DNA of 54,805 bases from a virus (taxonomy: Duplodnaviria; Caudoviricetes), in IMG/VR virus record IMGVR_UViG_3300029826_000003, positions 1-54,805 of that record, one strand, 5' to 3'. The notes beneath the pieces were generated by a model. The model ran no database searches and was not told the origin of the DNA. It saw only the letters and a list, made by a program, of their open reading frames with translations. Shown one piece after another: positions 3,023 through 51,254 of the stretch (the first letter of the stretch is position 1; each line of letters begins with the position of its first letter). The position numbers and the translations under genes are program-made.

Positions 3023-3486
3023 GCATTTATTCATTCCCACGATGCGCTGGCTATCTCAAGGCAATGCGCGTCCGGCTCGATGATCCAGACATGACGGATT
3101 ATTGGTTCGCCGCGATCCTATCGGAAGGGTTCACGGACGAGGAATTGACCAAGGCTGGAACAATCGATTTTTCGCGAATGACGGGTGACGAATTGTTATC
3201 GGCTTTCGAGCAGATGCTGGTCGACAAGAGATCTGCGCATCCGAAACTTCCGAAGCACGATATGGAAAGCCTCAAGGCATTCTTCGGATCGCGCGGAGTC
3301 AAGGCGTCTCGCCTTCAAAGCGATGATGATTTTTGGATATGCGCCGGACTTATGTGGGGAGGAGTGGTCAAACGCTCAGATGGTGCTCCTCTTTCCGAAC
3401 TTCTTTTCCAGCTTCGCCATATGTCCAAGTCTCAGCGCCGTCGTGCCGATATTCGCCGCGTTCCGGCGAAATGGAGGTCACAATGA
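3019..3486 (+). CDS. hypothetical protein
   Basis: ATGA-coupled ORF. Confidence 0.65.
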   Translation: MSIYSFPRCAGYLKAMRVRLDDPDMTDYWFAAILSEGFTDEELTKAGTIDFSRMTGDELLSAFEQMLVDKRSAHPKLPKHDMESLKAFFGSRGVKASRLQSDDDFWICAGLMWGGVVKRSDGAPLSELLFQLRHMSKSQRRRADIRRVPAKWRSQ

Positions 3487-3628
3487 CCGCTTCGGTCCAA
3501 TCCCGTCATGCACTCCGCACAATCGACGATTTCCGCTATGATCTTCCGCGGGCTGTTGATCGCGATGCGGTTAGCGGATCCGTCCAGAATTCCCAACGCT
3601 GCGTATCATCCTCCCGCGCGGCGCAACT

Positions 3629-3675
3629 AGCGCCGGAGACTGCAGAACGATGTGTCTCCGGCGCTTTTTATTTTT
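3629..3675 (+). terminator. intrinsic terminator (tR-like)
   Basis: 12-bp stem agcgccggagac/gtctccggcgct followed by a T-tract. Confidence 0.75.
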
Positions 3676-3685
3676 CGGTGGCACC

Positions 3686-3910
3686 ATGAAGCACGAGGAC
3701 AGATGGTATGCCGTCTGTCTCGACGGCGACGGATGCCCTGGGCTTGAGACGGGGACGGTCTATCGCGTGATTGGATTCGGCATCATGCCTGGCGGCTTCG
3801 AGGTCGCAATCCTGGAAGGCCATCGGTGCCCATATCTCGCCAAACGATTCAAGCTTCTTAGCAAGCAACGGATTGCGTCACTTCGCAGGTTTCTGGAGTC
3901 GGCGGAATAG
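3686..3910 (+). CDS. hypothetical protein
   Basis: ORF MKHEDRWYAVC... in the operon. Confidence 0.55.
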   Translation: MKHEDRWYAVCLDGDGCPGLETGTVYRVIGFGIMPGGFEVAILEGHRCPYLAKRFKLLSKQRIASLRRFLESAE

Positions 3911-3953
3911 AAATGTTCAGAGGAATTCAGCCCATGCAAAATGGATATCTGCA

Positions 3954-4529
3954 ATGACGGTCGTGGCGTCGAATTTCGAGCGCAAGACAAACGATCTTTA
4001 TGAGACCGAAGCATGGGCGACGGAGGCGCTTCTGCGCCACTTCCCGGTAAAGGATCTTTTCGTCTGGGAACCAGCAGCGGGAAATCATAAAATCTCGGAT
4101 ATCCTGCACCTACACGGTGCCGATGATGTAGCGACGACGGATATTATGACCTACGACCGCGAGCATAGCAGAATGGTTGATTTTCTTGATTCGTCTGCAT
4201 GGCCTTATTTTTGTGACGCGATCATCACCAATCCTCCCTACGGCAAAGGAAATCGGCAGGCGGTTCGATTTGCCGAGCTGGCGCTCGAGCGCTGTGACGG
4301 ACTTGTCGCGCTTCTGCTGACGGCGAAATTCGATTTCGGAAAGACGCGCACACATCTGTTTCGTGACAATCCACGGTTTGCGGCCAAGATCGCGCTGGTA
4401 GATCGAATTCAATGGTTTCCGGGAGATAATTCTGGAACAGAGGATCATGCCTGGTACGTATGGGATAATGGAAATGAATGCGGACGCGCCAAGCTTTTTT
4501 ACGAGGGTCGCGACGCGTCATTTTCCTAG
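3954..4529 (+). CDS. DNA amino-methyltransferase (m6A/m4C), small phage type
   Basis: DLYET, SAM motif VWEPAAG, catalytic IITNPPY. Confidence 0.85.
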   Translation: MTVVASNFERKTNDLYETEAWATEALLRHFPVKDLFVWEPAAGNHKISDILHLHGADDVATTDIMTYDREHSRMVDFLDSSAWPYFCDAIITNPPYGKGNRQAVRFAELALERCDGLVALLLTAKFDFGKTRTHLFRDNPRFAAKIALVDRIQWFPGDNSGTEDHAWYVWDNGNECGRAKLFYEGRDASFS

Positions 4530-38745: not shown

Positions 38746-38766
38746 GTCGGCCTCCTGTTCGGAATG

Positions 38767-39039
38767 CTAAAATCCGGTGTCAATTAGCAACCCTGGCGGC
38801 ATCCCCCATCCGCTTACGACCCAACCATGCTTTTCGCTTGACCACTCCATGTCATAGCAGTGATAAGTCGAATAGTCAGTAAGATCTGGCCATGAGCCAT
38901 CGTCTTCCTGATATGGGAATCGCCAGTCTACACCGATAAATAGACCACGCGAGCTGTCAATGCTGCCTATCTCGTCGGAAACCCCGCGCATGAATACCTT
39001 ATCACCAATCTGTGGTGTTCGAAGATCATCGTGATCCAT
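38767..39039 (-). CDS. hypothetical protein
   Basis: ORF in the leftward arm. Confidence 0.55.
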   Translation of the reverse strand: MDHDDLRTPQIGDKVFMRGVSDEIGSIDSSRGLFIGVDWRFPYQEDDGSWPDLTDYSTYHCYDMEWSSEKHGWVVSGWGMPPGLLIDTGF

Positions 39040-39040
39040 C

Positions 39041-39313
39041 TCAGTAGCACAAAGCACTCGTGATGTGCTGGTAGGCGTTCTTGAGATCGGATATCGCCTC
39101 TGCCAGTTCTTGTTTAGTCTCGGGGTAGTCCTCGATCGGAAAAAACTCGATATCGTCTATGACACGGCTGATGAGTGCGCGGATGTCCCTGAGTGCGTCG
39201 CGGCGAAAGTTGTTCATCTTTTTCCTCCTGCTCAGATCAAATTTCGCTTCAATCCACTCACGACAAAACGCCGCTCGCTCTTCGGGTGTAAGCCCGTCTT
39301 CATCGTTAGTCAT
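39041..39313 (-). CDS. hypothetical protein
   Basis: ORF with GAAGGAG RBS. Confidence 0.55.
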   Translation of the reverse strand: MTNDEDGLTPEERAAFCREWIEAKFDLSRRKKMNNFRRDALRDIRALISRVIDDIEFFPIEDYPETKQELAEAISDLKNAYQHITSALCY

Positions 39314-39315
39314 GG

Positions 39316-39537
39316 CTAATCTCCTTCGACAATAATGCCGAGCCGTCGTACGAGGTCTTCAGCGCTGCATCCGTCATCGAATGCGAAATCCTGACAATGA
39401 CCGCTCTCGTCATCCTCTCCAGTGATCTCGCGGGCACATCTGGCGATGTCATAGAGCATTTTCAGGTGCTGCATAACGAGCGCATGCAGGCCATGCAGAG
39501 CGAGCATTTCCGTCCTACTGATAGACTTCTTCAACAT
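39316..39537 (-). CDS. hypothetical protein
   Basis: Preceded by motif TCTGAATAGGAG. Confidence 0.65.
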   Translation of the reverse strand: MLKKSISRTEMLALHGLHALVMQHLKMLYDIARCAREITGEDDESGHCQDFAFDDGCSAEDLVRRLGIIVEGD

Positions 39538-39557
39538 CGTTACACTCCTATTCAGAT

Positions 39558-39857
39558 TCAATTGTCCCGCAGCGCGTCAAGACCGAGCATCTCCCGGCAC
39601 TGGGCGGCCGCCCACGGTAGATAGCGCTCGAACGCATCCACGAGGTCGCGGTGTCCATTTTCGTCGGTGCAAGCCATGAGAATGCCCAAGAGCGCCACTG
39701 TCATCCCGGCCATCGTCGCTTCCGCGTTATCCGCCGTGATAACGAAATTTCCATCCGCGAAGGCATCGACGACGCGACGGCGTATCTCTTCGGCTCTGGC
39801 GTCGAATGGCGATTCCGGGTTGAAATCCGGCATGTCTTTGAAACTCGGGAACTTCAT
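39558..39857 (-). CDS. hypothetical protein
   Basis: Preceded by motif TCTGGAATAGGAG. Confidence 0.7.
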   Translation of the reverse strand: MKFPSFKDMPDFNPESPFDARAEEIRRRVVDAFADGNFVITADNAEATMAGMTVALLGILMACTDENGHRDLVDAFERYLPWAAAQCREMLGLDALRDN

Positions 39858-39865
39858 GCCGGCTC

Positions 39866-40108
39866 CTATTCCAGAACACGCTCGAAGCGTCCGTCAAGAA
39901 ATTCCGATGCAGGGCGAACCCAGCACGTCCCGACCTTGCTATCGCGATATATGACGAGGGGCTCACCATCTTCCTCGCGGATACCGACGGCCTGTACCCA
40001 ATAGCGAGAACCACGATTTTTGTGCCGCCAATGGCTATTGATCGGTGCTGCGGTCCGCGTGGCTGCGACGCGCATCCGCGCTTTCTTCAAATCAAGTTCT
40101 GTATGCAT
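39866..40108 (-). CDS. DUF1653-like protein
   Basis: WRHK.RG..Y.V...EPLVIYR...WVRPASEFLDGRFERV; preceded by TTCTGAATAGGAGG. Confidence 0.75.
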   Translation of the reverse strand: MHTELDLKKARMRVAATRTAAPINSHWRHKNRGSRYWVQAVGIREEDGEPLVIYRDSKVGTCWVRPASEFLDGRFERVLE

Positions 40109-40120
40109 CTAACGTCCCTC

Positions 40121-40513
40121 CTATTCAGAATCCCGTGAAGCGCGCATCGCGGCGACTTTTTTGAGTGCTTCTTCCTTTATCTTCCGCATCTCGCGCCGCT
40201 GCTCTTCGACCGCAGCCCAATAGTGCGACTTGGCATACTCTCCATCAAAAGTGACGGGCATTTCGGGGTCATTAAGAAGCGCCTGTTTGACCGAAAGCGT
40301 ATGTATTACAACCTTCTTTCCAGTCGCTCGATATTCGGCCCCGATCATGTTGTAGTATTCGTTCGTAGGGTCTCGTTTCAGCACCTGAAGGCATCCGTCC
40401 CAATATGCGGGTTCGACATCAACAAAGTGGATATCCGTATTGCCGACGGAGACTTCTTTATCTCCGCTCGGGTCGGCCTCCTGCAGGGCCGCAATCAAAT
40501 CCCGTGTTTTCAC
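40121..40513 (-). CDS. hypothetical protein
   Basis: MKTRDLIAALQEADPSG...EPAYWDG; ends in Ser-Glu-stop inside the motif. Confidence 0.75.
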   Translation of the reverse strand: MKTRDLIAALQEADPSGDKEVSVGNTDIHFVDVEPAYWDGCLQVLKRDPTNEYYNMIGAEYRATGKKVVIHTLSVKQALLNDPEMPVTFDGEYAKSHYWAAVEEQRREMRKIKEEALKKVAAMRASRDSE

Positions 40514-40525
40514 GTTTGTCTCCCT

Positions 40526-40966
40526 TCAGGAATCGTCTGTCACTTCTGCCGGCTTGATCAGCCGGCGGTTGTCCTTCACCCCGGCATAGAGGGTCGCCAG
40601 CGCGATCGGCCGCATAGCCTCTTCCACGGTCATGCCGGCGATCATCTCGTTGTACATCTCAGCCTTTTTGCATGCGAGCTCGTAGGCTCCCGGACGAAGA
40701 TGAGCGCTGTACTGCCGATGCCTGCGCTTGTAACGGATCGTGTTGAAGAGAGGGTTCTCTGACTGGATAGCCTTCTTCTCTGCCTTCAGCGCCTCGGCAT
40801 GTGTGTCGAATTCGGTTGTTTCAGTTCGTGAGATACGATCTTTCCACGGCGAAAACGACGTGTGTTCGTAGGTTCGACGCGGCATATTTATGGTGCAACC
40901 CACGTATAGAAGAACGCCGTTCGCATCGAAATGGCGATAGAGGGTCGCCCTAACCTTGATCGGCAT
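40526..40966 (-). CDS. GIY-YIG nuclease
   Basis: LYRHFDANGVLLYVGCT...RR..EH...AL.AE..AI..ENPLFN. Confidence 0.85.
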   Translation of the reverse strand: MPIKVRATLYRHFDANGVLLYVGCTINMPRRTYEHTSFSPWKDRISRTETTEFDTHAEALKAEKKAIQSENPLFNTIRYKRRHRQYSAHLRPGAYELACKKAEMYNEMIAGMTVEEAMRPIALATLYAGVKDNRRLIKPAEVTDDS

Positions 40967-41213: not shown

Positions 41214-41254
41214 TTCTCGAAATTCAGTCTGAAAACCGCCGGAAGATATAAAAG

Positions 41255-41554
41255 ATGACAAATAGAGATTTATTGATAGGAACAATCGCGCAAATGCTGG
41301 CTCCTCGCCTTTTCGTCTTAAGTGGCGATAATCCTAGCGATATGGGCTTTCCGTTCGCCGACGACGAAGATGCATTCAAAGAAAGAATGTCTCGCCAGTT
41401 TGACCCAATCACCTTCTGGACAGAGAAGGCAACGGAGATTGCCGCGGCAATCGTCGACGTCATTTATGCAGAAGGAGACATCCCTGAAATAACTGATTCG
41501 CTGATCGAACGATCAGCGGCATTTGCCAAGAAATGGCAACCCGTCAGCGCCTGA
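41255..41554 (+). CDS. array gene 1, hypothetical
   Basis: First ORF after the promoter and motif. Confidence 0.65.
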   Translation: MTNRDLLIGTIAQMLAPRLFVLSGDNPSDMGFPFADDEDAFKERMSRQFDPITFWTEKATEIAAAIVDVIYAEGDIPEITDSLIERSAAFAKKWQPVSA

Positions 41555-41577
41555 TTCCAGAACCCGCCGAGGTCGAG

Positions 41578-41868
41578 ATGATATTCAGCGCAGAAGAACT
41601 CGAAAAGTGCAGATCAGCGATGGACAAACCGGCTCCGATAGAGGCTCTAAAGCTCATCGCCAGCGGCAGCGTTATTGTCGAACTCACGCACGACAAGCGC
41701 GATCTTTATCTCGACAGTGTCAATGGACGGCGCGTTCGAGACCCGGAATTTCCGAATCGCAAGATGCTGCTGAGCGGTGGATGGCCGCTATACCGCGCTG
41801 GAATGATCGATGATTTTTGTGTCGTGACAGATGCGGGCCGCAAAGTCCTCGCCGAATACGAGTCCTAG
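41578..41868 (+). CDS. array gene 2, hypothetical
   Basis: Motif and GAGG RBS before ATG. Confidence 0.7.
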   Translation: MIFSAEELEKCRSAMDKPAPIEALKLIASGSVIVELTHDKRDLYLDSVNGRRVRDPEFPNRKMLLSGGWPLYRAGMIDDFCVVTDAGRKVLAEYES

Positions 41869-41892
41869 AACCGCCCCGACCAGGAGACAACG

Positions 41893-42114
41893 ATGAAACT
41901 GACCGATGAACAACGCGATGAACTTGCAGCTCTCGCCAAGACGAACGACGCACTTGGCCACGCCTCGTTTCAGCATAAGCTAAATCGCGATTTCTACACG
42001 CCTCTAGCCGATGCTGGATTTGTCGAGATCGTGCACCCACCGCAGGGATTCGGCCGCGATGCATTCTTCGGTGTGACGATCACCGATGCTGGTCGCGCAG
42101 CGATTTCTAGATAA
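41893..42114 (+). CDS. array gene 3, small winged-helix-like
   Basis: LADAGFVE...ITDAGRAA. Confidence 0.7.
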   Translation: MKLTDEQRDELAALAKTNDALGHASFQHKLNRDFYTPLADAGFVEIVHPPQGFGRDAFFGVTITDAGRAAISR

Positions 42115-42128
42115 TCCCCGGAGGCACC

Positions 42129-42479
42129 ATGAATAACGCCGAATTCCGCAATGAACTCACGAAGATCATGCCGGGATACAAATGGACGGTTCACAAGACA
42201 TCGAACCCGGAAAGGCTGAAAGCGACCGGCATCCAGTCGAGCGGGTTCAACCGGCTCTCCACACTGCAGGTGACCCGGACGAAAAAGGGAAATGCAGCTT
42301 GGTATGATGTCAGATCTGCTCCGCATGGCACGAAATCGCCATGGGCGGCCGAGATCGGCAACGTGACCCTCGCCCGTGCCATGCGTGACCTTCAGACCCA
42401 CTACCAGCGGAAAGCGGCGAACTACCGCAAGCTGGCCGAACGACTCCAAAACGGACGCTCGACAGAGCAATCCAGCTAA
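42129..42479 (+). CDS. array gene 4, hypothetical
   Basis: GGAGG RBS; KIMPGYKWTVH...QSSGFNRLSTLQV. Confidence 0.75.
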   Translation: MNNAEFRNELTKIMPGYKWTVHKTSNPERLKATGIQSSGFNRLSTLQVTRTKKGNAAWYDVRSAPHGTKSPWAAEIGNVTLARAMRDLQTHYQRKAANYRKLAERLQNGRSTEQSS

Positions 42480-42499
42480 CTCACGGACAGGAGATCACC

Positions 42500-42799
42500 A
42501 TGAGTGGAATTGACGAGATCGCCGCCGAACGCCGCCGGCAGATCGAGGCCGAGGGGTGGACGCCGGAGCACGATGACGAGCACCGCAGCGGCGAGCTTGC
42601 GCAAGCCGCAGCCGCTTATGCACTCAATTGTTGTGACGACAGCGACGGACCGGATCTGAGATTGATGGGCGCTGAGATCTGGCCGTTCAATGATCTCTGG
42701 TGGAAGCCGAGGGACAGGCGCTACGACCTGGTTCGGGCCGGCGCCCTCATCGCCGCCGAGATCGACCGGCTCGATCGTCTCGAAGCAGGCAAGTCCTGA
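42500..42799 (+). CDS. array gene 5, widespread phage family (AERRRQIEAEGWTPEHDD)
   Basis: ERRRQ..EGWTPEHDD..GELA..WP..WWKP..LVRAGALI.AEIDRLDR. Confidence 0.85.
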   Translation: MSGIDEIAAERRRQIEAEGWTPEHDDEHRSGELAQAAAAYALNCCDDSDGPDLRLMGAEIWPFNDLWWKPRDRRYDLVRAGALIAAEIDRLDRLEAGKS

Positions 42800-42825
42800 T
42801 TTTCAAGAAACCACAGGAGGCCACG

Positions 42826-43038
42826 ATGCTGACCGTAAATATCGAGAAACGTGGCGACTTCTACATGGCTTGGCATGAGGATGCCCGCGACATCAAAAAG
42901 GCGCTTGGCGATATCGTTTTGACGACCGTCGGGGGTGCCGACACGATCGGCATTCCAGCCCATGCGTTGGAGAGCCATGTGGCTGCGCTTAATGCCGCTG
43001 GCATCAGCGTGAAGATCAACAGCAAAATCGATTCTTGA
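42826..43038 (+). CDS. array gene 6, stand-alone MutS domain I-like protein
   Basis: RGDFY....EDA....ALGDIVLT...GIPAHALESHVAALNAAGISV aligns by eye with the MutS N-terminus. Confidence 0.75.
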   Translation: MLTVNIEKRGDFYMAWHEDARDIKKALGDIVLTTVGGADTIGIPAHALESHVAALNAAGISVKINSKIDS

Positions 43039-43054
43039 AACCGCCGAGGTCAAT

Positions 43055-43723
43055 ATGCGCCAATTGAAAGTGCTGATAGGCGGGGAAGCAACACGCACGA
43101 TTGCGGCGGCATTCGAAGCGCACGGGCACTATGCCATGACGGCGGATTTCCGTCCCGCACAGCGTCCGGGACCGCACCATAAGGGCGACTGGGCCGACAT
43201 CGAGAACGACGGATGGGATCTGGCGATATTCCATCGCACGTGCACTTTCATGGCCAATTCGGGCGCCAAGCACATCTACGTTGACATGAAGAAAGCCAAC
43301 GGGCTCAACGAACAGCGCTGGCTTGAGCTGGGACGTCATGCGTGGTCTTTCTGGAACCACATGCAGACCTGTCCGGTTCGCTTCGCGGCATGGGAAAATC
43401 CCGTGATGATAGGCTATGCGCAATTGATGATCGGCAAGCCGGATCAGATCGTTCAGCCGTGGTGGTTTGCCGTAGATCCGAATGGGCCTGACAACGTCAA
43501 GAAAGCTACCGCGTGGTGGACACGGGGCGATCTTCCGAAGTTGAAACCGACAGGCATCCTTGACGGATCTACCGCGCGCGACGAGGTCTTCCGCATGGCG
43601 CCAACCGCCGATCCGGAAGTCAGACGCATGCAGCGATCGAACTTCACGCCGGGCCACGCTGAGGCAATTGCGGATCAGTGGGGCTCATTCGTTCAACAGC
43701 AGATCGCCGCCGAAGCTGCTTAG
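43055..43723 (+). CDS. array gene 7, minimal C5-cytosine methyltransferase-like protein
   Basis: WDLAIFHRTC, WENPV, IVQPWWF, KKATAWW..LPKL. Confidence 0.75.
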   Translation: MRQLKVLIGGEATRTIAAAFEAHGHYAMTADFRPAQRPGPHHKGDWADIENDGWDLAIFHRTCTFMANSGAKHIYVDMKKANGLNEQRWLELGRHAWSFWNHMQTCPVRFAAWENPVMIGYAQLMIGKPDQIVQPWWFAVDPNGPDNVKKATAWWTRGDLPKLKPTGILDGSTARDEVFRMAPTADPEVRRMQRSNFTPGHAEAIADQWGSFVQQQIAAEAA

Positions 43724-43745
43724 TCCAGAAACCGCCGAGGTTGAG

Positions 43746-44153
43746 ATGCAGGTGAACCGATACATCAGAGACAAGGCAATGGATCATGTCGATCATGCCC
43801 TTGGCCGCCCTGTCGACCCGACGGTCGAGAGCTATCGAAATTATTTTGCGACCAGTGTCGACGGCAACATAGCCGCTGAGTTTCGCGCTTCGCCAAATTG
43901 GATCGAAGGCATCCGTCAGGGTGACATGGTCTGGTTTCACGTTAGCGACCAGGGGCGCGCTGCGCTTCGCGATCATCTACGCGAGATCGGCGACGAGCAC
44001 CAACTGTTCACCGTTTCATGGGGCGGATACGACATGCCGCAGGTTGCTGCCAGCGCCAGCAAAGCGCGTTACGCCAGATGGAGCGCCTTGTGCGACGTCA
44101 TTGACGTTCCGTTCATGACGTTCGCGGCGACTGCGCGCGTGCGCCTCGCCTAA
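43746..44153 (+). CDS. array gene 8, hypothetical
   Basis: HALG...SYRNYF...FHVSDQGRAAL. Confidence 0.75.
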   Translation: MQVNRYIRDKAMDHVDHALGRPVDPTVESYRNYFATSVDGNIAAEFRASPNWIEGIRQGDMVWFHVSDQGRAALRDHLREIGDEHQLFTVSWGGYDMPQVAASASKARYARWSALCDVIDVPFMTFAATARVRLA

Positions 44154-44183
44154 TTCCGCAAACCCACCCGCCAGGAGACCGAC

Positions 44184-44393
44184 ATAACCGATAGCTTGGG
44201 CGAAGCCCTTCCCAAAAAAATGCAAGAAATCCGCGAGACCTACATTCCGGCCTACCAGAGCATCGGTCCGGCTGGAGGTTTTGCAATTGCCATGATGAAT
44301 CAGGCGTTGACGCGCGCGGAAAAGGCGATGATCGAAGGCGATATAGCCGCGATGATCTGTGCCTATAAAGATCTCTGCGAGTTCAAACTATGA
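44184..44393 (+). CDS. array gene 9; ATA in place of the expected ATG, possibly silenced
   Basis: CAGGAG RBS then ATA ACC GAT AGC TTG GGC GAA GCC; LGEALP...YQSIGPAG. Confidence 0.6.
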   Translation: MTDSLGEALPKKMQEIRETYIPAYQSIGPAGGFAIAMMNQALTRAEKAMIEGDIAAMICAYKDLCEFKL

Positions 44394-44411
44394 CTTTTCC
44401 AGAAACCGCCG

Positions 44412-44510
44412 CACCAATACGAGCACCATCCATGCGGCACCAATCTGCTCGACGCCAACCAGGCATATGAGATGGTGTGCTACATGCTCGCCGGACTTCC
44501 GGCCGAGTGA
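44412..44510 (+). pseudogene. headless gene fragment between two junction motifs
   Basis: HQYEHHPCGTNLLDANQAYEMVCYMLAGLPAE-stop directly after GAAACCGCCG; no RBS or start codon. Confidence 0.55.
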
Positions 44511-44538
44511 TCCAGAAACCGCCGACTAGGAGGCTCCC

Positions 44539-44835
44539 ATGCGTTTGTCAGTTCCCACCAAGTTGGATGAACATCATCGCCGATGGCTCAAAGCGTACTG
44601 TCCATGCGACAACGGTGTGCATGTATTTGATCCGGACGACGATGAGTTTGGCGGCCGGACCGTGCAGAACTTTCCGGGCACGGATCTTACTGTTTTCAAT
44701 GAACTTTCCTCTGCCGGGGATGGCGATGATTTCGACCTAATCTGTGACCTCATGGTCAACGGGGACTTGGTCGATACCGCGCTCATTCGCCGCCAGGACT
44801 TGGCGCTTATCGAACGTCGCCTGCAATCTGTCTGA
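44539..44835 (+). CDS. array gene, hypothetical
   Basis: Motif and AGGAGG RBS. Confidence 0.7.
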   Translation: MRLSVPTKLDEHHRRWLKAYCPCDNGVHVFDPDDDEFGGRTVQNFPGTDLTVFNELSSAGDGDDFDLICDLMVNGDLVDTALIRRQDLALIERRLQSV

Positions 44836-44847
44836 AAACAGCCGGAG

Positions 44848-45066
44848 GTGAGCATGTGGCCTTATGACCAACAAGACAAAGACCTGCACCGTCTGGTCGT
44901 TGAGCGTATCACGGACGCGATCGAGAGAGTGACGCAACTTGCCGAAACGCCGGAGCAACATGCCATGATCATCATGGCTGCTTTGTGTCGATGTGCCGGC
45001 ATGGCCGGTGCTCTCATCGCTGTCGAGATCGACCGGCTCGATCGTCTCGAAGCAAGCAAGTCCTGA
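44848..45066 (+). CDS. array gene, chimera carrying the 3' end of gene 5
   Basis: C-terminus AGALIAVEIDRLDRLEASKS duplicates 42736-42799. Confidence 0.6.
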   Translation: MSMWPYDQQDKDLHRLVVERITDAIERVTQLAETPEQHAMIIMAALCRCAGMAGALIAVEIDRLDRLEASKS

Positions 45067-45092
45067 TTTTCAAGAAACGGTCGGAGGGCAAT

Positions 45093-45332
45093 ATGCGAGA
45101 TCTTCAAACTGACCACGATCCGAGCCACCCGCTCACCCGGGCGCTGCGCGAGGTCGTTCAGAAGAACGGGCTGACCGGAGCCGTTATGCTGACGTTCACG
45201 AAGGATCGCGTTGGCGTGAATTCCTCGTCTCCGGGCGTCGAATTCGGCGCGATCATGCAGCGGTTGGCTGACGCTATTCTGTTCGCCTTTGATCGCGGTG
45301 ACTTCGATAGCGTGTTGCCGCCAGAACAGTGA
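45093..45332 (+). CDS. array gene, hypothetical
   Basis: Motif and GGAGG RBS. Confidence 0.7.
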   Translation: MRDLQTDHDPSHPLTRALREVVQKNGLTGAVMLTFTKDRVGVNSSSPGVEFGAIMQRLADAILFAFDRGDFDSVLPPEQ

Positions 45333-45364
45333 CTTTTCTCACAACCGCCGACCAGGAGGCAAAG

Positions 45365-45622
45365 ATGATCACAGACCAGCAGATCGATCGACTGAGCGCA
45401 TGCACTTGCGGCGGAACTGCCGAACCGGCCTCGCGTCGAATTTCATCGCTGCCGAATGCTACGCGGGTGGATGAAGCGAAATTTGATCTGAAGAGGAGCC
45501 ATCAAATGCCGACGATTGTGCAGGGAACCCGCGTCTATCCAGAACCTGACGGCTGGCTTGATCCAGCAAAGATTAACAAACCAGCCTGCTATGGACGCCG
45601 ATGCGACTGGCTATGTGTCTGA
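45365..45622 (+). pseudogene. probably two degenerate array genes read as one ORF
   Basis: Internal TCTGAAGAGGAG motif (45487-45498) and a second ATG at 45506. Confidence 0.4.
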
Positions 45623-45677
45623 CGTCGGCCGGCCCGACCTTCCGAATTCAATCAAGCGCTCTGAATAGGAGGCCAGA

Positions 45678-45998
45678 ATGGCTAATGACGAACCCTTGAA
45701 GGTCGGATTTCATCCACCACTGCAATGTGCCCGCGGCCGAACCGACTGCCGTTCTCTGGCGCAGCTTATTTCGAGCCGCGATGAGCCTACATTCGTCTGT
45801 TGTGGGGAAGTTGACGAAGGCAAAACACCTGTTCCGGAGGACCGCTGGTCATTCTGTATCAACACGATGAACGCCGGTCACGGCAAGGGCTACAATTTCA
45901 GGGCATTCGTCGACCGACGCGACATGTCGCACATGAGCGCCGTGCTTAGCATGGCGCTCGCGATGGTCATCCCGCTCGACTATGACGATTCTGAATAG
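45678..45998 (+). CDS. array gene, Cys-containing hypothetical
   Basis: Flanked by TCTGAATAGGA motifs; ends SE-stop. Confidence 0.7.
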   Translation: MANDEPLKVGFHPPLQCARGRTDCRSLAQLISSRDEPTFVCCGEVDEGKTPVPEDRWSFCINTMNAGHGKGYNFRAFVDRRDMSHMSAVLSMALAMVIPLDYDDSE

Positions 45999-46008
45999 GA
46001 AGACTTTA

Positions 46009-46206
46009 ATGCCGCGCACTTGCGTTCGATCTATAGCGACTTTTCGGCTTTCGAGCACGAACACCGACGAGCTGCGTCTTGAATTCTCGTGCTCCACTGA
46101 CGCATACAAATTGGCCAGGCGCATTTTGCAGGAAGCATTAAATCACGAAGCCGGCGGTGCATTTTCCGTTCGTCCGATCTACGGCCGTGCCGATTTTTCC
46201 GAATAG
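46009..46206 (+). CDS. array gene, hypothetical
   Basis: Flanked by motifs; ends SE-stop. Confidence 0.55.
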   Translation: MPRTCVRSIATFRLSSTNTDELRLEFSCSTDAYKLARRILQEALNHEAGGAFSVRPIYGRADFSE

Positions 46207-46215
46207 GAGGTCAGC

Positions 46216-46404
46216 GTGACCGAGCAATGCCACGACTGCAATTTCTACCGTGTTCGCACCGACGAGCCAGGGCGCAACAGTCAAGGATGGTTCGGCTACT
46301 GCGTTCGCTTCCCACCCATTTTCAAGGAAGACCGCGCCATCAACGATGGTTGGCCGAACGTTCATGGTCAGTCGTGGTGCGGCGAGTTTAAACGTTCTGA
46401 ATAG
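46216..46404 (+). CDS. array gene, small Cys-rich protein
   Basis: CHDCNFY...GYCVRFPP...WP.V....WCGEF; ends SE-stop. Confidence 0.75.
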   Translation: MTEQCHDCNFYRVRTDEPGRNSQGWFGYCVRFPPIFKEDRAINDGWPNVHGQSWCGEFKRSE

Positions 46405-46475
46405 GAGGATGTGGAGATTTTCCGGCCTGAATGATCCCCCATGTTGCGCGCGCCATTCGCATGATTTCGTCTCTG

Positions 46476-47317: not shown

Positions 47318-48097
47318 TCAGTGGCCATTCGGCCATTGGCGGATCATCAGATCTGACGGAATCATATCGTCGGTCGGCCGGAAGGCAGCGACCTGCTTCA
47401 TGAAGAATGCCACGTCGTAGAGCTCGCACTCGTGCGCCGTATGCCGGGCCCATTCGATCGAGAATTGCCTGTCGTTCCACTTCGGTCCGCTCTTGCCGCC
47501 GAAGATGATCCAGTCCAGCCCGCCATTCCCCATCCAGCGGAAGAACTCGACGCGCTCCTGTGCCGGCTCATAACTGATTCCGATCCAAGGGATGCCGAAA
47601 CGGTGCTTCATATCTACAAGACGCGGAATGTCGCGATCGGCTTCGGCCTGTGTCACGATGGTGACAAGCACGCCAACATGCTGCGGCCATGACGTTTCCC
47701 AAACGGGGGAAACCATCTTGGGGAGATTGCTGATGCGCTTGGTGCAGACCTGCCACTCCAAGCGGTCGCAGGCTTCCATCGTAGCCATGTGATCCGAGCG
47801 CCACCGTTCGTCTATTTCATTGTCGAACAGGTCGCCCATGGAAAGTGTGAAGACGCGCCGGTTCCGGCCATTCTCGGCGAAGAACTTGTCGGCCTGCTTC
47901 TGCCAGCGATATGGCTCATTGCGGGCGTGCTCGGAAAGCAGCCGCCGCGGTGCACCATGGCCCCAATGTCCACCGCCAAATCCACGGTCATCAACACTCT
48001 CGGCATAGCAATGATCGCAAGCCGGACCGACCTTCGTGCATCCGACCCATGAATTAAAAGTAGAATCGGTCCAAGCAATCCCTGTCGTCCTACCCAT
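47318..48097 (-). CDS. DUF5131 (phage Gp37/Gp68) radical-SAM-like protein
   Basis: TGIAWTDSTFNSWVGCTKVGPACDHCYA (CxxxxxxCxxC); SMGDLF; FFMKQ. Confidence 0.9.
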   Translation of the reverse strand: MGRTTGIAWTDSTFNSWVGCTKVGPACDHCYAESVDDRGFGGGHWGHGAPRRLLSEHARNEPYRWQKQADKFFAENGRNRRVFTLSMGDLFDNEIDERWRSDHMATMEACDRLEWQVCTKRISNLPKMVSPVWETSWPQHVGVLVTIVTQAEADRDIPRLVDMKHRFGIPWIGISYEPAQERVEFFRWMGNGGLDWIIFGGKSGPKWNDRQFSIEWARHTAHECELYDVAFFMKQVAAFRPTDDMIPSDLMIRQWPNGH

Positions 48098-48539
48098 TTT
48101 CGCGCCTCTTTTGGCGGTATGCCCGCCACCATGCGGCATCACGTATTTGTCTTTTCCTGTCCCTCCTGCACGACCGGCATTCGCGAGTTCCGTTTGGTCT
48201 AATCAGCGTGTTTTCAGGCGTGAAAGGATGCCCATGAATGCAGTTCGTCTGTGCTTTTTTCTTGCTGTCACGTGTGGCGTGGCAGACACTGCAGACGGGT
48301 TGCACGTCATAGTGATGTTGCGCCGAATAACCGAGATAATGATCATAGGAATGTCTCGGCTCACCTTCTCTCCAAATATGCCCGCAGTCTGAGCACGGCA
48401 GGGAATTCGGATGCGGGCGTCTTCCGCTCCTGACCTCGACGTTAATACGTTGTCGCGCCTGGATTTTGTCGCCAGCGCGAGGTTGGTTTGGTCTTGGCCC
48501 TGGCCTATCGGTCCACTTGATTCCAGTCTCCTTGCCCAT
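48090..48539 (-). CDS. HNH-like endonuclease with a DUF5131-like N-terminal peptide
   Basis: CSDCG...DH..GY...VCSVCH; CIHGHPFTPENT...CRSC. Confidence 0.7.
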   Translation of the reverse strand: MGKETGIKWTDRPGPRPNQPRAGDKIQARQRINVEVRSGRRPHPNSLPCSDCGHIWREGEPRHSYDHYLGYSAQHHYDVQPVCSVCHATRDSKKKAQTNCIHGHPFTPENTLIRPNGTRECRSCRRDRKRQIRDAAWWRAYRQKRRENG

Positions 48540-48934
48540 CAGTTTTTCTTTCCCTCATAGATCGCTCTAGGTGGCAACGGCGTCTTCGGCCTACGTTCCT
48601 TGCGATCGAAGCCGCGGGATTTCATCGTCGGCGGCTTGCGGATTCCAAGCGCTTTTGCCTTTTTGCGGTTCGACGTGGAACGCTCCGTCGCTTCCTTATT
48701 CGTCTTCACGTCATGAGCGAGCTTTAGAACTGCCTGGAGATTGCTTTCACGGTTCTCGCCGCCTTTCCAAAGCGCCTTGATGTGGTCGAATTCTATCCTG
48801 TCTCCGTCCTTGAATTCAATGCCGGTTATGGCGCATCGGTTGTTCTGGCGATCGATGATACGCAGCTTGCAGGACCGCGGAGGTTTGCTGTCATCCGTCT
48901 TGCCAATCCATTCCTTGACGGATCTCATGGCCAT
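48539..48934 (-). CDS. HNH endonuclease
   Basis: EFDHIKALWKGGENRESNLQ...H..KT. Confidence 0.85.
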   Translation of the reverse strand: MAMRSVKEWIGKTDDSKPPRSCKLRIIDRQNNRCAITGIEFKDGDRIEFDHIKALWKGGENRESNLQAVLKLAHDVKTNKEATERSTSNRKKAKALGIRKPPTMKSRGFDRKERRPKTPLPPRAIYEGKKN

Positions 48935-50118: not shown

Positions 50119-50538
50119 TCATGCTGCCTCCAGGAATGCGAGCGGATCAAAGCCAATGGCATCTGCCAGCTTTTCCATGGCGCGGTCCATATATGCCTTG
50201 AATGCATCACCATCCATCGCGTCAAAAGCCGTACTATCTGTTGTGACGAACGGCTTTCCGTCGAGGCCATATGTGACCGTTATGTAGCCGCAAGCACGCT
50301 TCAATGCGTCATGCAAATGTTCCGCTGTAGGCCACTTGTCTGTCGCGTTCACGACTTCCGTCAGAGCTTTCCAATATGTGCGATGCTGCGGAAGACTTCT
50401 CTTCGACATCTTCGTGACGCGGAACTCTGAGCCCATCGGCGCATTGATCAGAAGCTCGGCATCAAACGACGACACCGGTTGCAGTCCTTTCGGCGTCTTG
50501 CGGACGATGATTGCCAGTGTTCCGCGCTTCTTGCTCAT
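50119..50538 (-). CDS. DUF1367/NinB-like recombination accessory protein
   Basis: RSLPQHRTYW...STAFDAMD...F..YMD. Confidence 0.7.
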   Translation of the reverse strand: MSKKRGTLAIIVRKTPKGLQPVSSFDAELLINAPMGSEFRVTKMSKRSLPQHRTYWKALTEVVNATDKWPTAEHLHDALKRACGYITVTYGLDGKPFVTTDSTAFDAMDGDAFKAYMDRAMEKLADAIGFDPLAFLEAA

Positions 50539-51254
50539 GCAGCGTCCAACGTGCTTTCTGGCAGACGAGAGAGGCGATCGGCAAAAGCATCCTTGAACGC
50601 GTAGTATTCGTTATCCGGCAGGCTCTCGATCTGCGTTTTCTGATTGCCGGCCCATTTCAGAAGGTCTCCCTTCGTCAAAAGGCGCTGCATGTTCTCGTAG
50701 AGCGCCGCATAGACGTGTTCGATGTCTTTTGTGTCTGTCAAGCGTTCTCCAGAAGCGCGCGGTTTACGGGGCTTCTGTGCGGGCTTCGAAGCCGGTTCTT
50801 CGATACCATCAGAAACATTCGCCTGAGCCTTGTCATAGAGGGCGAGACCAAACTGGTTTCCGAAGGTCATCAATGCCCGCTTTCGCGCATCGGATTCGGC
50901 TTCCTTGATAGCGCTTTCGTGGGCGAGGCCAAGATCCACATCAATGCCGTGGCCAGATCCCATGCCTTCACGCTCAATGCCTCCGACCTTGACGCATACC
51001 TTTGCGATGTAGGTCACCCCCCATCCATCGCGTTCGTACTGGCCGCGGCCGATCTTGCGTTCATGTTCCGCCACACATCTGCATTCGACCGTGTGGCTGT
51101 CCCATGCATCGAAGCCGAATATACGGTTCGCTTCGGCGATCGCGTGCCAGCTCTCGATATAGCTCAGCGTTGATTTGCCCTGTTCGCGCGTCTTGACATG
51201 GATACGATTGAGCGGCTTTGCGAGTTCTGCTTTCTGATCTTCCGTAAACATCAT
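50535..51254 (-). CDS. Rad52/Sak-family single-strand annealing recombinase
   Basis: LSYIESWHAIAEANRIFGFDAW...REGMGSG...AIKEAESDARKRALMTFGNQFGLALYDK. Confidence 0.93.
   Translation of the reverse strand: MMFTEDQKAELAKPLNRIHVKTREQGKSTLSYIESWHAIAEANRIFGFDAWDSHTVECRCVAEHERKIGRGQYERDGWGVTYIAKVCVKVGGIEREGMGSGHGIDVDLGLAHESAIKEAESDARKRALMTFGNQFGLALYDKAQANVSDGIEEPASKPAQKPRKPRASGERLTDTKDIEHVYAALYENMQRLLTKGDLLKWAGNQKTQIESLPDNEYYAFKDAFADRLSRLPESTLDAA

Follow-up and report, generated by a model that had tools for sequence, protein, structure and literature searches.

The window analysed here, the whole stretch of 54,805 nucleotides, is the complete record (54.8 kb) of an uncultured phage from marine sediment. 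Its + strand carries, between 41255 and 46404, an operon-like array of 16 small genes (62-222 aa), which diverges from a small-gene operon on the - strand (41126 down to 38389) and converges on recombination genes that also lie on the - strand. Two members of the array are the subject of this report. Gene 5 (42500-42799, +, 99 aa) belongs to a phage domain family that is widespread and of unknown function; it matches phrog_11504 (E = 1.2e-37) and eight further PHROGs, has no match in Pfam, NCBIfam or PDB, and its relatives are encoded in at least 548 of the 598 pattern-matched viral stretches listed (tblastn, E <= 1e-3). Gene 11 (44854-45066, +, 70 aa) is a chimera, in which residues 1-50 represent a rare family of 84-87 aa proteins and residues 51-70 are the tail of gene 5. 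The genome also encodes a single-strand annealing recombinase of the Rad52/22 family (50535-51254, -; PF04098, E = 3.8e-35, with 121.5 bits where the cutoff is 20.3), neighboured by NinB/Orf-like, Gam-like and DHH phosphoesterase genes. A GIY-YIG protein is encoded just upstream of the array (40526-40966) and two HNH proteins at 48090-48934. Searches with Pfam (71 ORFs) and PHROGs (79 ORFs) gave no integrase or transposase and no recombinase of the tyrosine or serine type.

A duplication of the gene-5 tail had been described in the initial annotation, and re-alignment confirmed it: positions 42736-42811 and 45003-45078 (both +) are identical at 71 of 76 bases. The two copies are separated by 2.27 kb and five genes, they are the only ones in the 54,805-bp record, and the second is recovered with E = 9e-29 in a BLAST search within that record. 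All five mismatches (42742, 42745, 42754, 42756 and 42788) are transitions, and the longest exact run, starting at 42757, is 31 nt. The repeat comprises the last 20 codons of gene 5, its TGA stop and 12 nt of non-coding DNA, TTTTCAAGAAAC, which form the 5' half of a junction motif; in the second copy, gene 11 takes its grafted tail and its stop codon from these elements, and the following junction its 5' half. Immediately 3' of the repeat one copy continues with CACAGGAGG and the other with GGTCGGAGG, no DNA likeness between the two loci is detectable 5' of it, and the BLASTP alignment of gene 5 with gene 11 is limited to the 20-residue tail.

The initial annotation had also asked for a check on misassembly, which we carried out at contig level in X1 and X2, two sequencing runs that hold the whole stretch and may be its source samples. 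Their Logan contigs are broken only at the exact core of the repeat, with pieces that end at 42786, run from 42758 to 45053 and restart at 45025, and no single Logan contig (k = 31) in these runs crosses either copy. Unitig depth at the 31-nt core is 120 (X1) and 180 (X2), as compared with 88-98 in the flanks. As direct copies around unique DNA permit only one linear path, these data point to no assembly error. No deletion joint between the two copies was seen in the contigs, which drop rare variants.

The tail is native to gene 5, as the gene-5 family keeps it in many phages: tblastn matches extend to residue 93-99, and blastn matches cover 42698-42777. The N-terminus of gene 11, on the other hand, has a family of its own. 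An exhaustive phmmer search gave eight matches at E <= 1e-3, gene 11 included, and the family (84-87 aa) contains P0003, P0006, P0007 and an 85-aa ORF of locus L246, with P0003 being 57% identical to gene 11 over residues 1-63. All four relatives have their own, different C-termini, and the likeness of gene 11 to them ends at ..CAGMAG, which is where the gene-5 tail starts. Thus, one gene tail has been joined to two different downstream genes, and two of the earlier claims hold: that an unrelated N-terminus precedes the second copy in the fused gene, and that a single tail stands in two downstream contexts. A remote homology between the gene-11 N-terminus and gene 5 was considered and rejected on the basis of BLASTP (tail only), the lack of DNA likeness, and phmmer.

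The identity between the copies stops, as had been claimed, inside a motif of about 17 nt, and this motif is a real and repeated feature of the operon. At 12 consecutive junctions, and nowhere else in the genome, it stands in one orientation after the stop codon and before the ribosome-binding site; it reads TTCCAGAAACCGCCGA, followed by GGAGG and, 5-7 nt on, by ATG, and AGAAACCGCC is a part of the junction. The g3|g4 and g4|g5 junctions lack it, as do ATGA overlaps elsewhere in the genome. We refer to it as type 1. The 17-mers (41226-45351, all +) start at 41226, 41554, 41861, 42801, 43031, 43722, 44153 (a variant), 44396, 44509, 44829, 45068 and 45335. Those relevant to the repeat are TTTCAAGAAACCACAGG between genes 5 and 6 (42801-42817, +, 17.9 bits) and TTTCAAGAAACGGTCGG between genes 11 and 12 (45068-45084, +, 17.8 bits), and it is within the latter, at 45082, that the likeness of a related contig begins. 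Across the 12 aligned junctions T, C, A and C positions are invariant and there is a CGCC core. A position-weight matrix finds 11 matches of at least 14 bits within the operon (41226-45335, +), all of them instances from which it was built; its best match outside the operon scores 15.7 bits, and none lies in the structural genes. The ATG follows the AAC core by 13-14 or 18-21 nt, and the offset from the stop codon is fixed as well. Variants of the 5' half and of the 3' half recur in changing combinations from junction to junction, with TGA(C)TTTTC..AAC being combined with four different 3' halves.

At 11 of the 12 motif junctions the spacer is only 9-32 nt long, while the twelfth copy opens a decayed slot of 145 nt (44394-44538, +), where two motif copies lie 113 nt apart and the enclosed sequence has neither ribosome-binding site nor start codon. 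Two related contigs show, at 44410, the same motif copy followed by an intact ribosome-binding site and ATG. A second type of junction, TTCYGAATAGGAGG, occurs on the + strand at 45659, 45989, 46197 and 46395 (45659-46407) and on the - strand at 38752-38764, 39545-39557 and 40118-40130; its pattern has 13 matches against 3.66 expected, and the proteins of genes 14-16 all end in ..SE*. Between 36 and 48 kb there are five promoter-like sites against 6.6 expected, none of them at a junction motif. Structured RNA or a terminator in the repeat was rejected, as the folds of the two repeat copies, one junction and the decayed slot gave z-scores of 0.02, 0.09, 0.90 and -0.65, none significant. Two further ideas, assessed by eye only, were dropped: pairing of the motif with the 3' end of 16S rRNA, where a resemblance was seen at one junction, and a link to GANTC methylation sites, which are present in three of the 12 type-1 junctions.

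Run X4, another sample of the same study, provided relatives for comparison; coverage of the stretch is incomplete in both X3 and X4, and only the covered parts are informative. Relatives in X4 lose their likeness to the window inside motif copies at 42804, 44167, 44410 (two contigs) and 45082. The three other breaks are at 43024, which is 7 nt away from a motif, at the start codon at 42500, and at 45123, within a gene. Thus four of seven breaks fall within motif copies, which make up 3.8% of the stretch (binomial P = 7e-5), a count that comes from short contigs of one sample and leaves out eight further loose ends. The breaks at 42500, 42804 and 44167 were inferred from the coordinates of contig pieces rather than read directly from loose ends. 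It needs to be added that little of each 9-32 nt spacer lies outside the motif, and that a break in the motif therefore looks the same as one placed at a gene border by selection. With this proviso, and with a fifth break lying 7 nt off, the prediction that homology in relatives ends at the motif was borne out for four of the seven.

The surroundings of the motif in other DNA are also informative. An X4 relative has, 5' of gene 12, a different gene tail and then its own motif copy, GTCTGAGAAAC. In a distant element (L115/L090) the identical TCCAGAAACCGCCGA stands behind a gene-7 homologue (42% amino acid identity), and the DNA beyond it is unrelated. The most similar relatives of gene 7, L204 and L205 (74-76% identity), lack the motif, and their junctions are ATGA overlaps. 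Loci surrounding gene-5 and gene-7 relatives, 1.2 Mb in all, showed no second phage with such an array, in collections that may lack records very close to the window. In genome_contigs, a junction pattern of 17 specified bases matched at least 120 stretches of unrelated taxa and, among the matches listed, one weak pair on one strand. In viral_contigs, the exact 14-mer was found in at least 116 stretches, nearly all of them single chance matches, and only L115 and L090 were relevant among those listed. The same collection gave two, two, one and one loci for gene 11, P0003, gene 12 and the DUF5131 gene, respectively, all distant, metagenome_contigs gave two distant loci for the gene-11 family alignment, and phage and plasmid BLAST gave short matches to genes 4 and 5 only.

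The two ends of the duplication differ in kind. The left one lies at GGCCGG (45003-45008, +), a microhomology of 6 nt that gene 5 (42736-42741) has in common with the native ..MAG.. codons of gene 11, whose MAG/AG residues are conserved in P0003 and P0007. We infer from the sequence that this was the crossover point, inside the coding sequence. With the left end inside a gene at a 6-nt microhomology, no whole 'cassette' moved. For the right end, a crossover at or just after GAAAC had been proposed. Its placement inside the motif stands, but the end of identity gives only an upper bound, at or before GAAAC, rather than a point. The same applies to the proposed cassette, [CGCCG-RBS-ORF-stop-TTCnnGAAAC]: the junction motif is real and relatives break there, but this exact definition is only partly supported. 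A fixed cassette border is in turn at odds with the breaks in relatives, which are spread over about 12 nt around GAAAC (42804, 44167, 44410 and 45082), and such scatter fits homology-driven exchange better.

We thus favour, at a probability of roughly 55%, the explanation that the 76-bp repeat is a recombination scar, left by short-homology exchange at a conserved linker associated with the ribosome-binding site. The 3' end of gene 5 (20 codons, the stop and the first half of the junction) would have been copied onto gene 11 within the phage lineage, and the copied tail would have replaced the native C-terminal 30 or so codons of gene 11. One crossover would have occurred at GGCCGG in two coding sequences and the other within the ~17-nt motif. 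The motif itself may be seen as a linker attached to the ribosome-binding site, which normally serves, in all probability, the expression of the promoter-less small genes, at the level of translation initiation or coupling. As it is present at every junction in the same orientation, 10-15 nt of shared sequence are on offer there, and the Rad52-family recombinase of the phage itself, or template switching during replication, could swap, insert or delete genes at these places while leaving them unbroken. The scar suggests that the motif marks sites at which the phage swaps small accessory genes. What counts against this explanation is that three of the seven breaks in relatives fall outside motif copies, the one at 45123 within a gene, and that no motif is present at the left end of the duplication. 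The failure to find a second phage with such an array in the searches above, and the motif-free junctions of L204 and L205, speak against it as well.

The Rad52/22 protein is a candidate for the enzyme of such short-homology exchange. Rad52-like phage recombinases are reported to be a driving force of mosaic formation on short, diverged homologies (PMC3945230). However, the substrates described there were 700 bp and longer (PMC3945230), whereas the homology shared here amounts to only 10-15 nt or so.

Two published cases resemble the proposed exchange, which would act in the manner of T4 PeSLs or of lambdoid boundary sequences. In the account of mycobacteriophage Island3, duplicated gene tails of about 50 bp (gp67/gp68) are read as the product of recombination by general enzymes between short shared sequences close to gene ends, and the same account refers to the 'short conserved boundary sequence' model of phage mosaicism and to lambdoid boundary sequences (PMC3029335). 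The present locus is alike in that the C-terminal 18-20 residues of one gene recur at the end of a small, orphan-like gene nearby, with a nucleotide repeat in the range of 50-76 bp; the otherwise unrelated genes 5 and 11 share their last 20 codons, within a repeat of 71/76 identical nucleotides. Unlike in Island3, the repeat continues into a motif of 12 junctions at which relatives also break, and its copies are separated by five genes and 2.27 kb. The promoter-early stem-loop (PeSL) of T4-type phages, as outlined in its description, is an element of about 100 bp that carries a sigma-70 promoter together with a terminator hairpin (PMC2839356), so that each PeSL gene is its own transcription unit, and exchange has been proposed there to proceed via the phage's own homologous recombination, without an integrase (PMC2839356). 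As with PeSLs, small accessory genes of a variable region have a repeated element between stop and start, here at 12 junctions. Homology between close relatives of PeSL phages breaks in the elements (PMC2839356); in the present locus four of seven breaks lie in motif copies, in short contigs of one sample and with motif and gene border inseparable. Outward-facing PCR has been used on PeSL mini-circles. Unlike PeSLs, the motif is about 17 nt long, sits in 9-32 nt spacers inside one operon, and has neither promoter-like site nor fold.

A plausible, if rather less probable, alternative is that the motif is solely an expression signal, comparable to the start-associated sequences (SAS) of Cluster K mycobacteriophages or to a phage regulator's binding site for operon translation or mRNA processing, and that the breaks come from random illegitimate recombination followed by selection for joints at gene borders. 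The fixed offsets to ribosome-binding site and ATG, the single orientation and the restriction to non-structural small genes are all in line with such a signal, as is the fact that particular positions, rather than whole blocks, are invariant. Conservation of the motif behind a gene-7 homologue of only 42% identity argues for a function, and the left breakpoint is a plain 6-nt microhomology. As the intergenic spacers filled by the motif are short, breaks could also come to lie there through selection for intact genes, and the duplication is a single event, whose right breakpoint could therefore sit in the junction by chance or via selection. According to the part of the Cluster K report that presents them, SAS are 13 bp long (consensus GGGATAGGAGCCC), contain AGGAG and lie 3-7 bp from the start codon (PMC3203893), in one orientation, before non-structural genes that belong to different families, in some cases overlapping the stop codon of the preceding gene; their function is unknown too, and that part does not report them as recombination points (PMC3203893). 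The anatomy is shared: both are short, asymmetric repeats of a single orientation, immediately 5' of start codons and absent from structural genes. The type-1 motif differs, however, in lying 5' of the ribosome-binding site and in having an unrelated consensus, and only type 2 (GAATAGGAGG) has ATAGGAG in common with the SAS consensus. A pure expression signal accounts poorly, moreover, for the re-assortment of 5' and 3' motif halves among junctions, and for four breaks concentrated in about 12 nt around GAAAC instead of being spread over the spacer or placed at stop and start codons. Nor are the two readings exclusive, as a conserved signal is still shared homology.

A bolder version of the exchange idea is one we hold to be doubtful. 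It takes the 17-nt motif as the recognition and exchange site of a gene-cassette system free of integrase and promoters, by which single promoter-less genes would be added, lost and put into a new order at stop-motif-RBS joints, with a motif-specific GIY-YIG or HNH nuclease together with the Rad52-type protein, or the Rad52-type protein alone on some 15 nt, as the agent; the 76-bp duplication would then be a mis-fired exchange.

Integrons are the familiar example of promoter-less single genes arranged in one orientation with a repeated element between them, the attC site, acted upon by IntI. attC sites are imperfect inverted repeats, about 60-140 bp in length, which fold when single-stranded, and IntI is a tyrosine recombinase encoded beside the array. 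It could be supposed that here, too, a phage nuclease or recombinase recognises the motif, cuts or joins at it and so directs insertion and excision of single genes in an integron-like manner, although with another site and another enzyme; this we regard as quite improbable. Twelve co-oriented copies with invariant positions, promoter-less genes all running in one direction, a decayed slot still enclosed by two motif copies, and the nearby GIY-YIG (40526-40966) and HNH (48090-48934) genes as candidate enzymes would suit such a system. The likeness to integrons nevertheless ends with the one-way, promoter-less genes and the repeated element between them, since no integrase, attC-like palindrome or single crossover point was found, and the spacers measure 9-32 nt at 11 of the 12 junctions. 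The Pfam and PHROG searches gave no tyrosine or serine recombinase or transposase, the junctions show no hairpin or significant fold (z from -0.65 to +0.9), the breaks extend over about 12 nt rather than marking one phosphodiester bond, and one end of the duplication lies inside a gene. Finally, that the second copy or the chimeric gene is an artefact, a mis-join at a repeated k-mer, can be practically dismissed: the k = 31 contigs do stop exactly at the 31-nt core without spanning a copy, but both flanks of both copies are equally deep, the core is enriched in two runs, the copies differ at five positions, a direct repeat around unique DNA has a single linear solution, and the exact gene-11 protein is recorded in five contigs from two source collections, the longest of 54,916 bp.

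How phages shuffle small genes without damage is an old question, with random joints followed by selection on one hand, and targeting to conserved linkers on the other. The locus described here is a compact test case for it, as it combines 12 linkers in one operon, a dated scar with a known donor, a Rad52-type gene and co-occurring relatives whose differences fall at the linkers. Should exchange indeed be guided by the linker, about 15 nt beside a ribosome-binding site, far below the ~100 bp of PeSLs, would be enough to create 'slots' for gene swapping, and this would explain the oddly uniform junctions in some phage operons.

A 76-bp sequence occurs twice in the array of 16 small plus-strand genes at 41255-46404, at 42736-42811 and 45003-45078, and a search within the 54,805-bp record returned the second copy at E = 9e-29 and no others. 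The copies agree at 71 of 76 positions, with an exact core of 31 nt, and all five differences are transitions. Copy 1 covers the final 20 codons of gene 5 (42500-42799), the TGA and then TTTTCAAGAAAC, while copy 2 forms the 3' end of gene 11 (44854-45066). Directly after GAAAC the copies diverge (CACA versus GGTC), sharing thereafter only a ribosome-binding site and an ATG; the initial annotation was thus right that identity ends inside the junction motif. The full stretch is present at 99-100% identity in two sequencing runs, X1 and X2, whose k = 31 contigs break at the exact 31-nt core only, and core depth is 120 and 180 in the two runs against 88-98 in the flanks. This is the pattern expected from two real direct copies. 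The exact gene-11 protein is recorded from five contigs. The X1 source sample also holds a third gene-5-type tail variant (record 2, 42737-42771, at a low depth of 4.4), flanked on each side by different sequence; one flank reads ..TACAGAAAGGAGAGAG and is motif-like minus the CCGCC part.

Upstream of the repeat, no alignment between the two loci was found at the DNA or protein level. Gene 5 is a member of a large phage family (nine PHROGs matched, best E = 1.2e-37), a relative being encoded in 548 of the 598 pattern-matched stretches among the matches listed from the viral-contig scan. Family alignments reach the extreme C-terminus, so this tail is original to gene 5. For gene 11, a word-indexed search matched gene 11 alone, and an exhaustive phmmer search found eight proteins at E <= 1e-3, among them P0003 (84 aa, 57% identity over residues 1-63 of gene 11) and P0006 and P0007 (87 aa each); a further family member, of 85 aa, comes from a metagenome locus. 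Beyond ..CAGMAG, 4 of 4 family members run on for about 30 residues unlike the gene-5 tail, and therefore the native end of gene 11 has been replaced. Gene 11 is a chimera, which bears out the earlier claim that the second copy is fused to an unrelated N-terminus. Identity begins at GGCCGG, a 6-nt microhomology that gene 5 also contains and that in gene 11 codes for its family's conserved ..AG; we infer that this was the crossover point.

An alignment of twelve array junctions gives the pattern (T)TC-NN-(G/A)AAC-CGCC-G; GAGG or AGGAGG comes next, and an ATG 5-7 nt beyond that. With a weight matrix built from 11 of the 12, all 11 hits of at least 14 bits in 41226-45335 (plus strand) are its own training set; the best score elsewhere is 15.7 bits, and shuffles average 8.7 hits at 10 bits or more. 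The AAC core lies 13-14 nt from the ATG in six junctions and 18-21 nt in four, and 4-5, 10-11 or 13-14 nt from the end of the upstream stop codon, which falls within the motif in three junctions. The two halves combine variously: TGA(C)TTTTC..AAC stands upstream of four different 3' halves, and the 3' half ..CGCCGAGGT-N5-ATG is preceded by three different 5' halves. Two motifs 113 nt apart (44394-44538) enclose DNA with no ribosome-binding site or start codon, where one frame extends the gene 9 frame and terminates in ..YEMVCYMLAGLPAE*. The segment is probably what is left of a lost gene. Gene 9 (44184-44393) has ATA at its expected start, 6 nt past AGGAGAC, with no canonical start until a TTG 12 nt on. 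A relative in X4, a run from another sample of the same study, reads ATGAAC there, and the window's gene 9 may therefore have lost its start codon or use a rare one.

X4 offers the most useful of all comparisons with other DNA, as it holds relatives at 90-100% identity, with partial fit in 12 of the 18 contigs placed. At the 45082 break, the relative reads ..CCAGTCTGAGAAACCCC upstream, a gene tail unlike the window's together with a motif copy of its own, and then gene 12's shared CGGAGGGCAATATG. At 44410 (two contigs), another gene follows GAAACCGCC in the relatives, its ribosome-binding site intact and its ATG present, at the position of the window's decayed slot. Two more breaks, 42804 and 44167, were deduced from the coordinates of the pieces in records 20 and 24. 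The others lie 7 nt 5' of a motif copy (43024), at the gene-5 ATG in a motif-less junction (42500) and within gene 12 (45123). The initial annotation had proposed that homology ends clustering at the motif in other genomes would support its model; among the breaks listed, 4 of 7 lie inside motif copies. The twelve 17-nt motif windows make up 3.8% of the stretch (binomial P = 7e-5, from one sample with short contigs), and "at the motif" nearly equals "at a gene border", because the motif fills most of the array's 470 nt of intergenic DNA.

Among viral contigs, the nearest have only single genes in common with the window: gene 7 in L204 and L205 (74-76% amino-acid identity), adjacent gene-5 and gene-14 homologues in L007, and a DUF5131 gene in L249. 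Junctions in these four are overlapping ATGA without the motif. In L007 (6009-6612), the gene-14 homologue (73% nt identity) lies directly 3' of the gene-5 homologue, again with ATGA overlaps, and so the same small genes exist in a different order. Across 1.2 Mb of loci around gene-5 and gene-7 relatives, 13 matrix hits of at least 15 bits were found, 0 of them at a junction. L115 and L090, two near-identical contigs of a distant element, carry a gene-7 homologue (42% identity); after its stop comes an identical TCCAGAAACCGCCGA, beyond which the DNA is unrelated, and another small gene has a second motif copy in front of it. The case is ascertained because it was located via the motif itself; even so, a 14-mer would be very unlikely to match by chance at precisely the position after a gene-7 homologue. 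The last codons, stop and next 15 nt in L115 match the window's gene 7-gene 8 junction at 24 of 29 nt, far above the gene-body match. Around this homologue (L115 reverse strand, 3340-4060, and the corresponding L090 region) the neighbours are plasmid-like.

The event requires a joint at GGCCGG and another within the motif. A short patch might have been copied all at once, through a template switch or because a single-stranded fragment annealed; alternatively, unequal exchange at GGCCGG would have duplicated 2.27 kb, with a motif-to-motif deletion following. The breaks spread over about 12 nt and no integrase was found among 71 ORFs (Pfam scan) or 79 ORFs (PHROG scan), which argues for an exchange that would be homology-guided rather than site-specific. 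The original interpretation is supported in part: the joining of one tail to an unrelated gene is supported, the fixed crossover point is not. Rad52-like phage recombinases are described as dominating mosaic formation on short, diverged sequences (PMC3945230). Action of a Rad52/22 protein on about 15 nt is an extrapolation, because the substrates described in that study were hundreds of bp long (PMC3945230). We rate it as slightly more likely than not that the linker causes exchanges instead of simply marking gene borders.

By PHROG and Pfam scans, the record (CheckV completeness 100, linear ends) is a tailed phage, with replication and methylase genes at 2-8 kb and terminase, portal, capsid, tail and lysis genes on the plus strand from 12.7 to 36 kb; the runs containing its DNA are labelled marine sediment metagenome. 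A minus-strand recombination block (46.5-54.5 kb) encodes a Rad52/22-family recombinase (PF04098, E = 3.8e-35), NinB/Orf-like and Gam-like/Gp157 proteins, a DHH phosphoesterase and two HNH proteins (48090-48934). Between structural genes and this block lies an accessory region, in which a minus-strand operon of nine small genes (41126 down to 38389) diverges from the array holding the repeat and motifs. One operon product is a GIY-YIG domain protein (40526-40966, minus strand), whose gene lies a short way upstream of the array's divergent promoter region; such free-standing GIY-YIG and HNH nucleases could stimulate local gene conversion. Gene 6 (42826-43038) encodes a free-standing 70-aa protein that matches the mismatch-binding domain I of MutS (PF01624, E = 3.2e-7, above cutoff), in the same phage as the Rad52-type recombinase, and one may speculate that it interferes with host mismatch repair.

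Genes 14-16 (45659-46407, plus strand) have junctions of another type, TTCYGAATAGGAGG, which is shared by three to four junctions of the divergent operon (38752-40130, minus strand), with 13 matches to the pattern versus 3.66 expected. Stop codons in two frames, TGA and TAG, are built into it right at the ribosome-binding site, and the conserved junction extends into coding sequence, because the gene 14, 15 and 16 proteins all end ..SE*. At neither junction type did we find promoter-like sites beyond chance or a significant fold. Another small duplication (25 of 27 nt) links the divergent operons on opposite strands, at 39225-39251 (minus), inside the 39313-39041 gene, and 45472-45498 (plus), inside gene 13; contigs from X1 and X2 fit both places too. 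Each copy has ..EAKFDL.. codons, then a ribosome-binding-site-like AGGAG and an in-frame ATG, and has the look of a further copied gene-tail-plus-junction or of a fused ORF pair.

An integron was rejected as the identity of the array, given the lack of an integrase in both ORF sets and of a significant fold. The array-wide linker functions similarly to the PeSLs of T4-type phages, but fails their two defining features as described there, a promoter and a stem-loop (PMC2839356). Start-associated sequences of Cluster K mycobacteriophages, as reported, have the closest anatomy to the motif, although their consensus and position relative to the ribosome-binding site differ (PMC3203893). The same duplicated-tail signature is described for Island3 gp67/gp68, whose 18 shared C-terminal residues (about 50 bp) were interpreted as a product of boundary-sequence-type recombination (PMC3029335). 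The kind of arrangement is already known, and what is new here is a very short linker adjoining the ribosome-binding site, together with a datable recombination scar.
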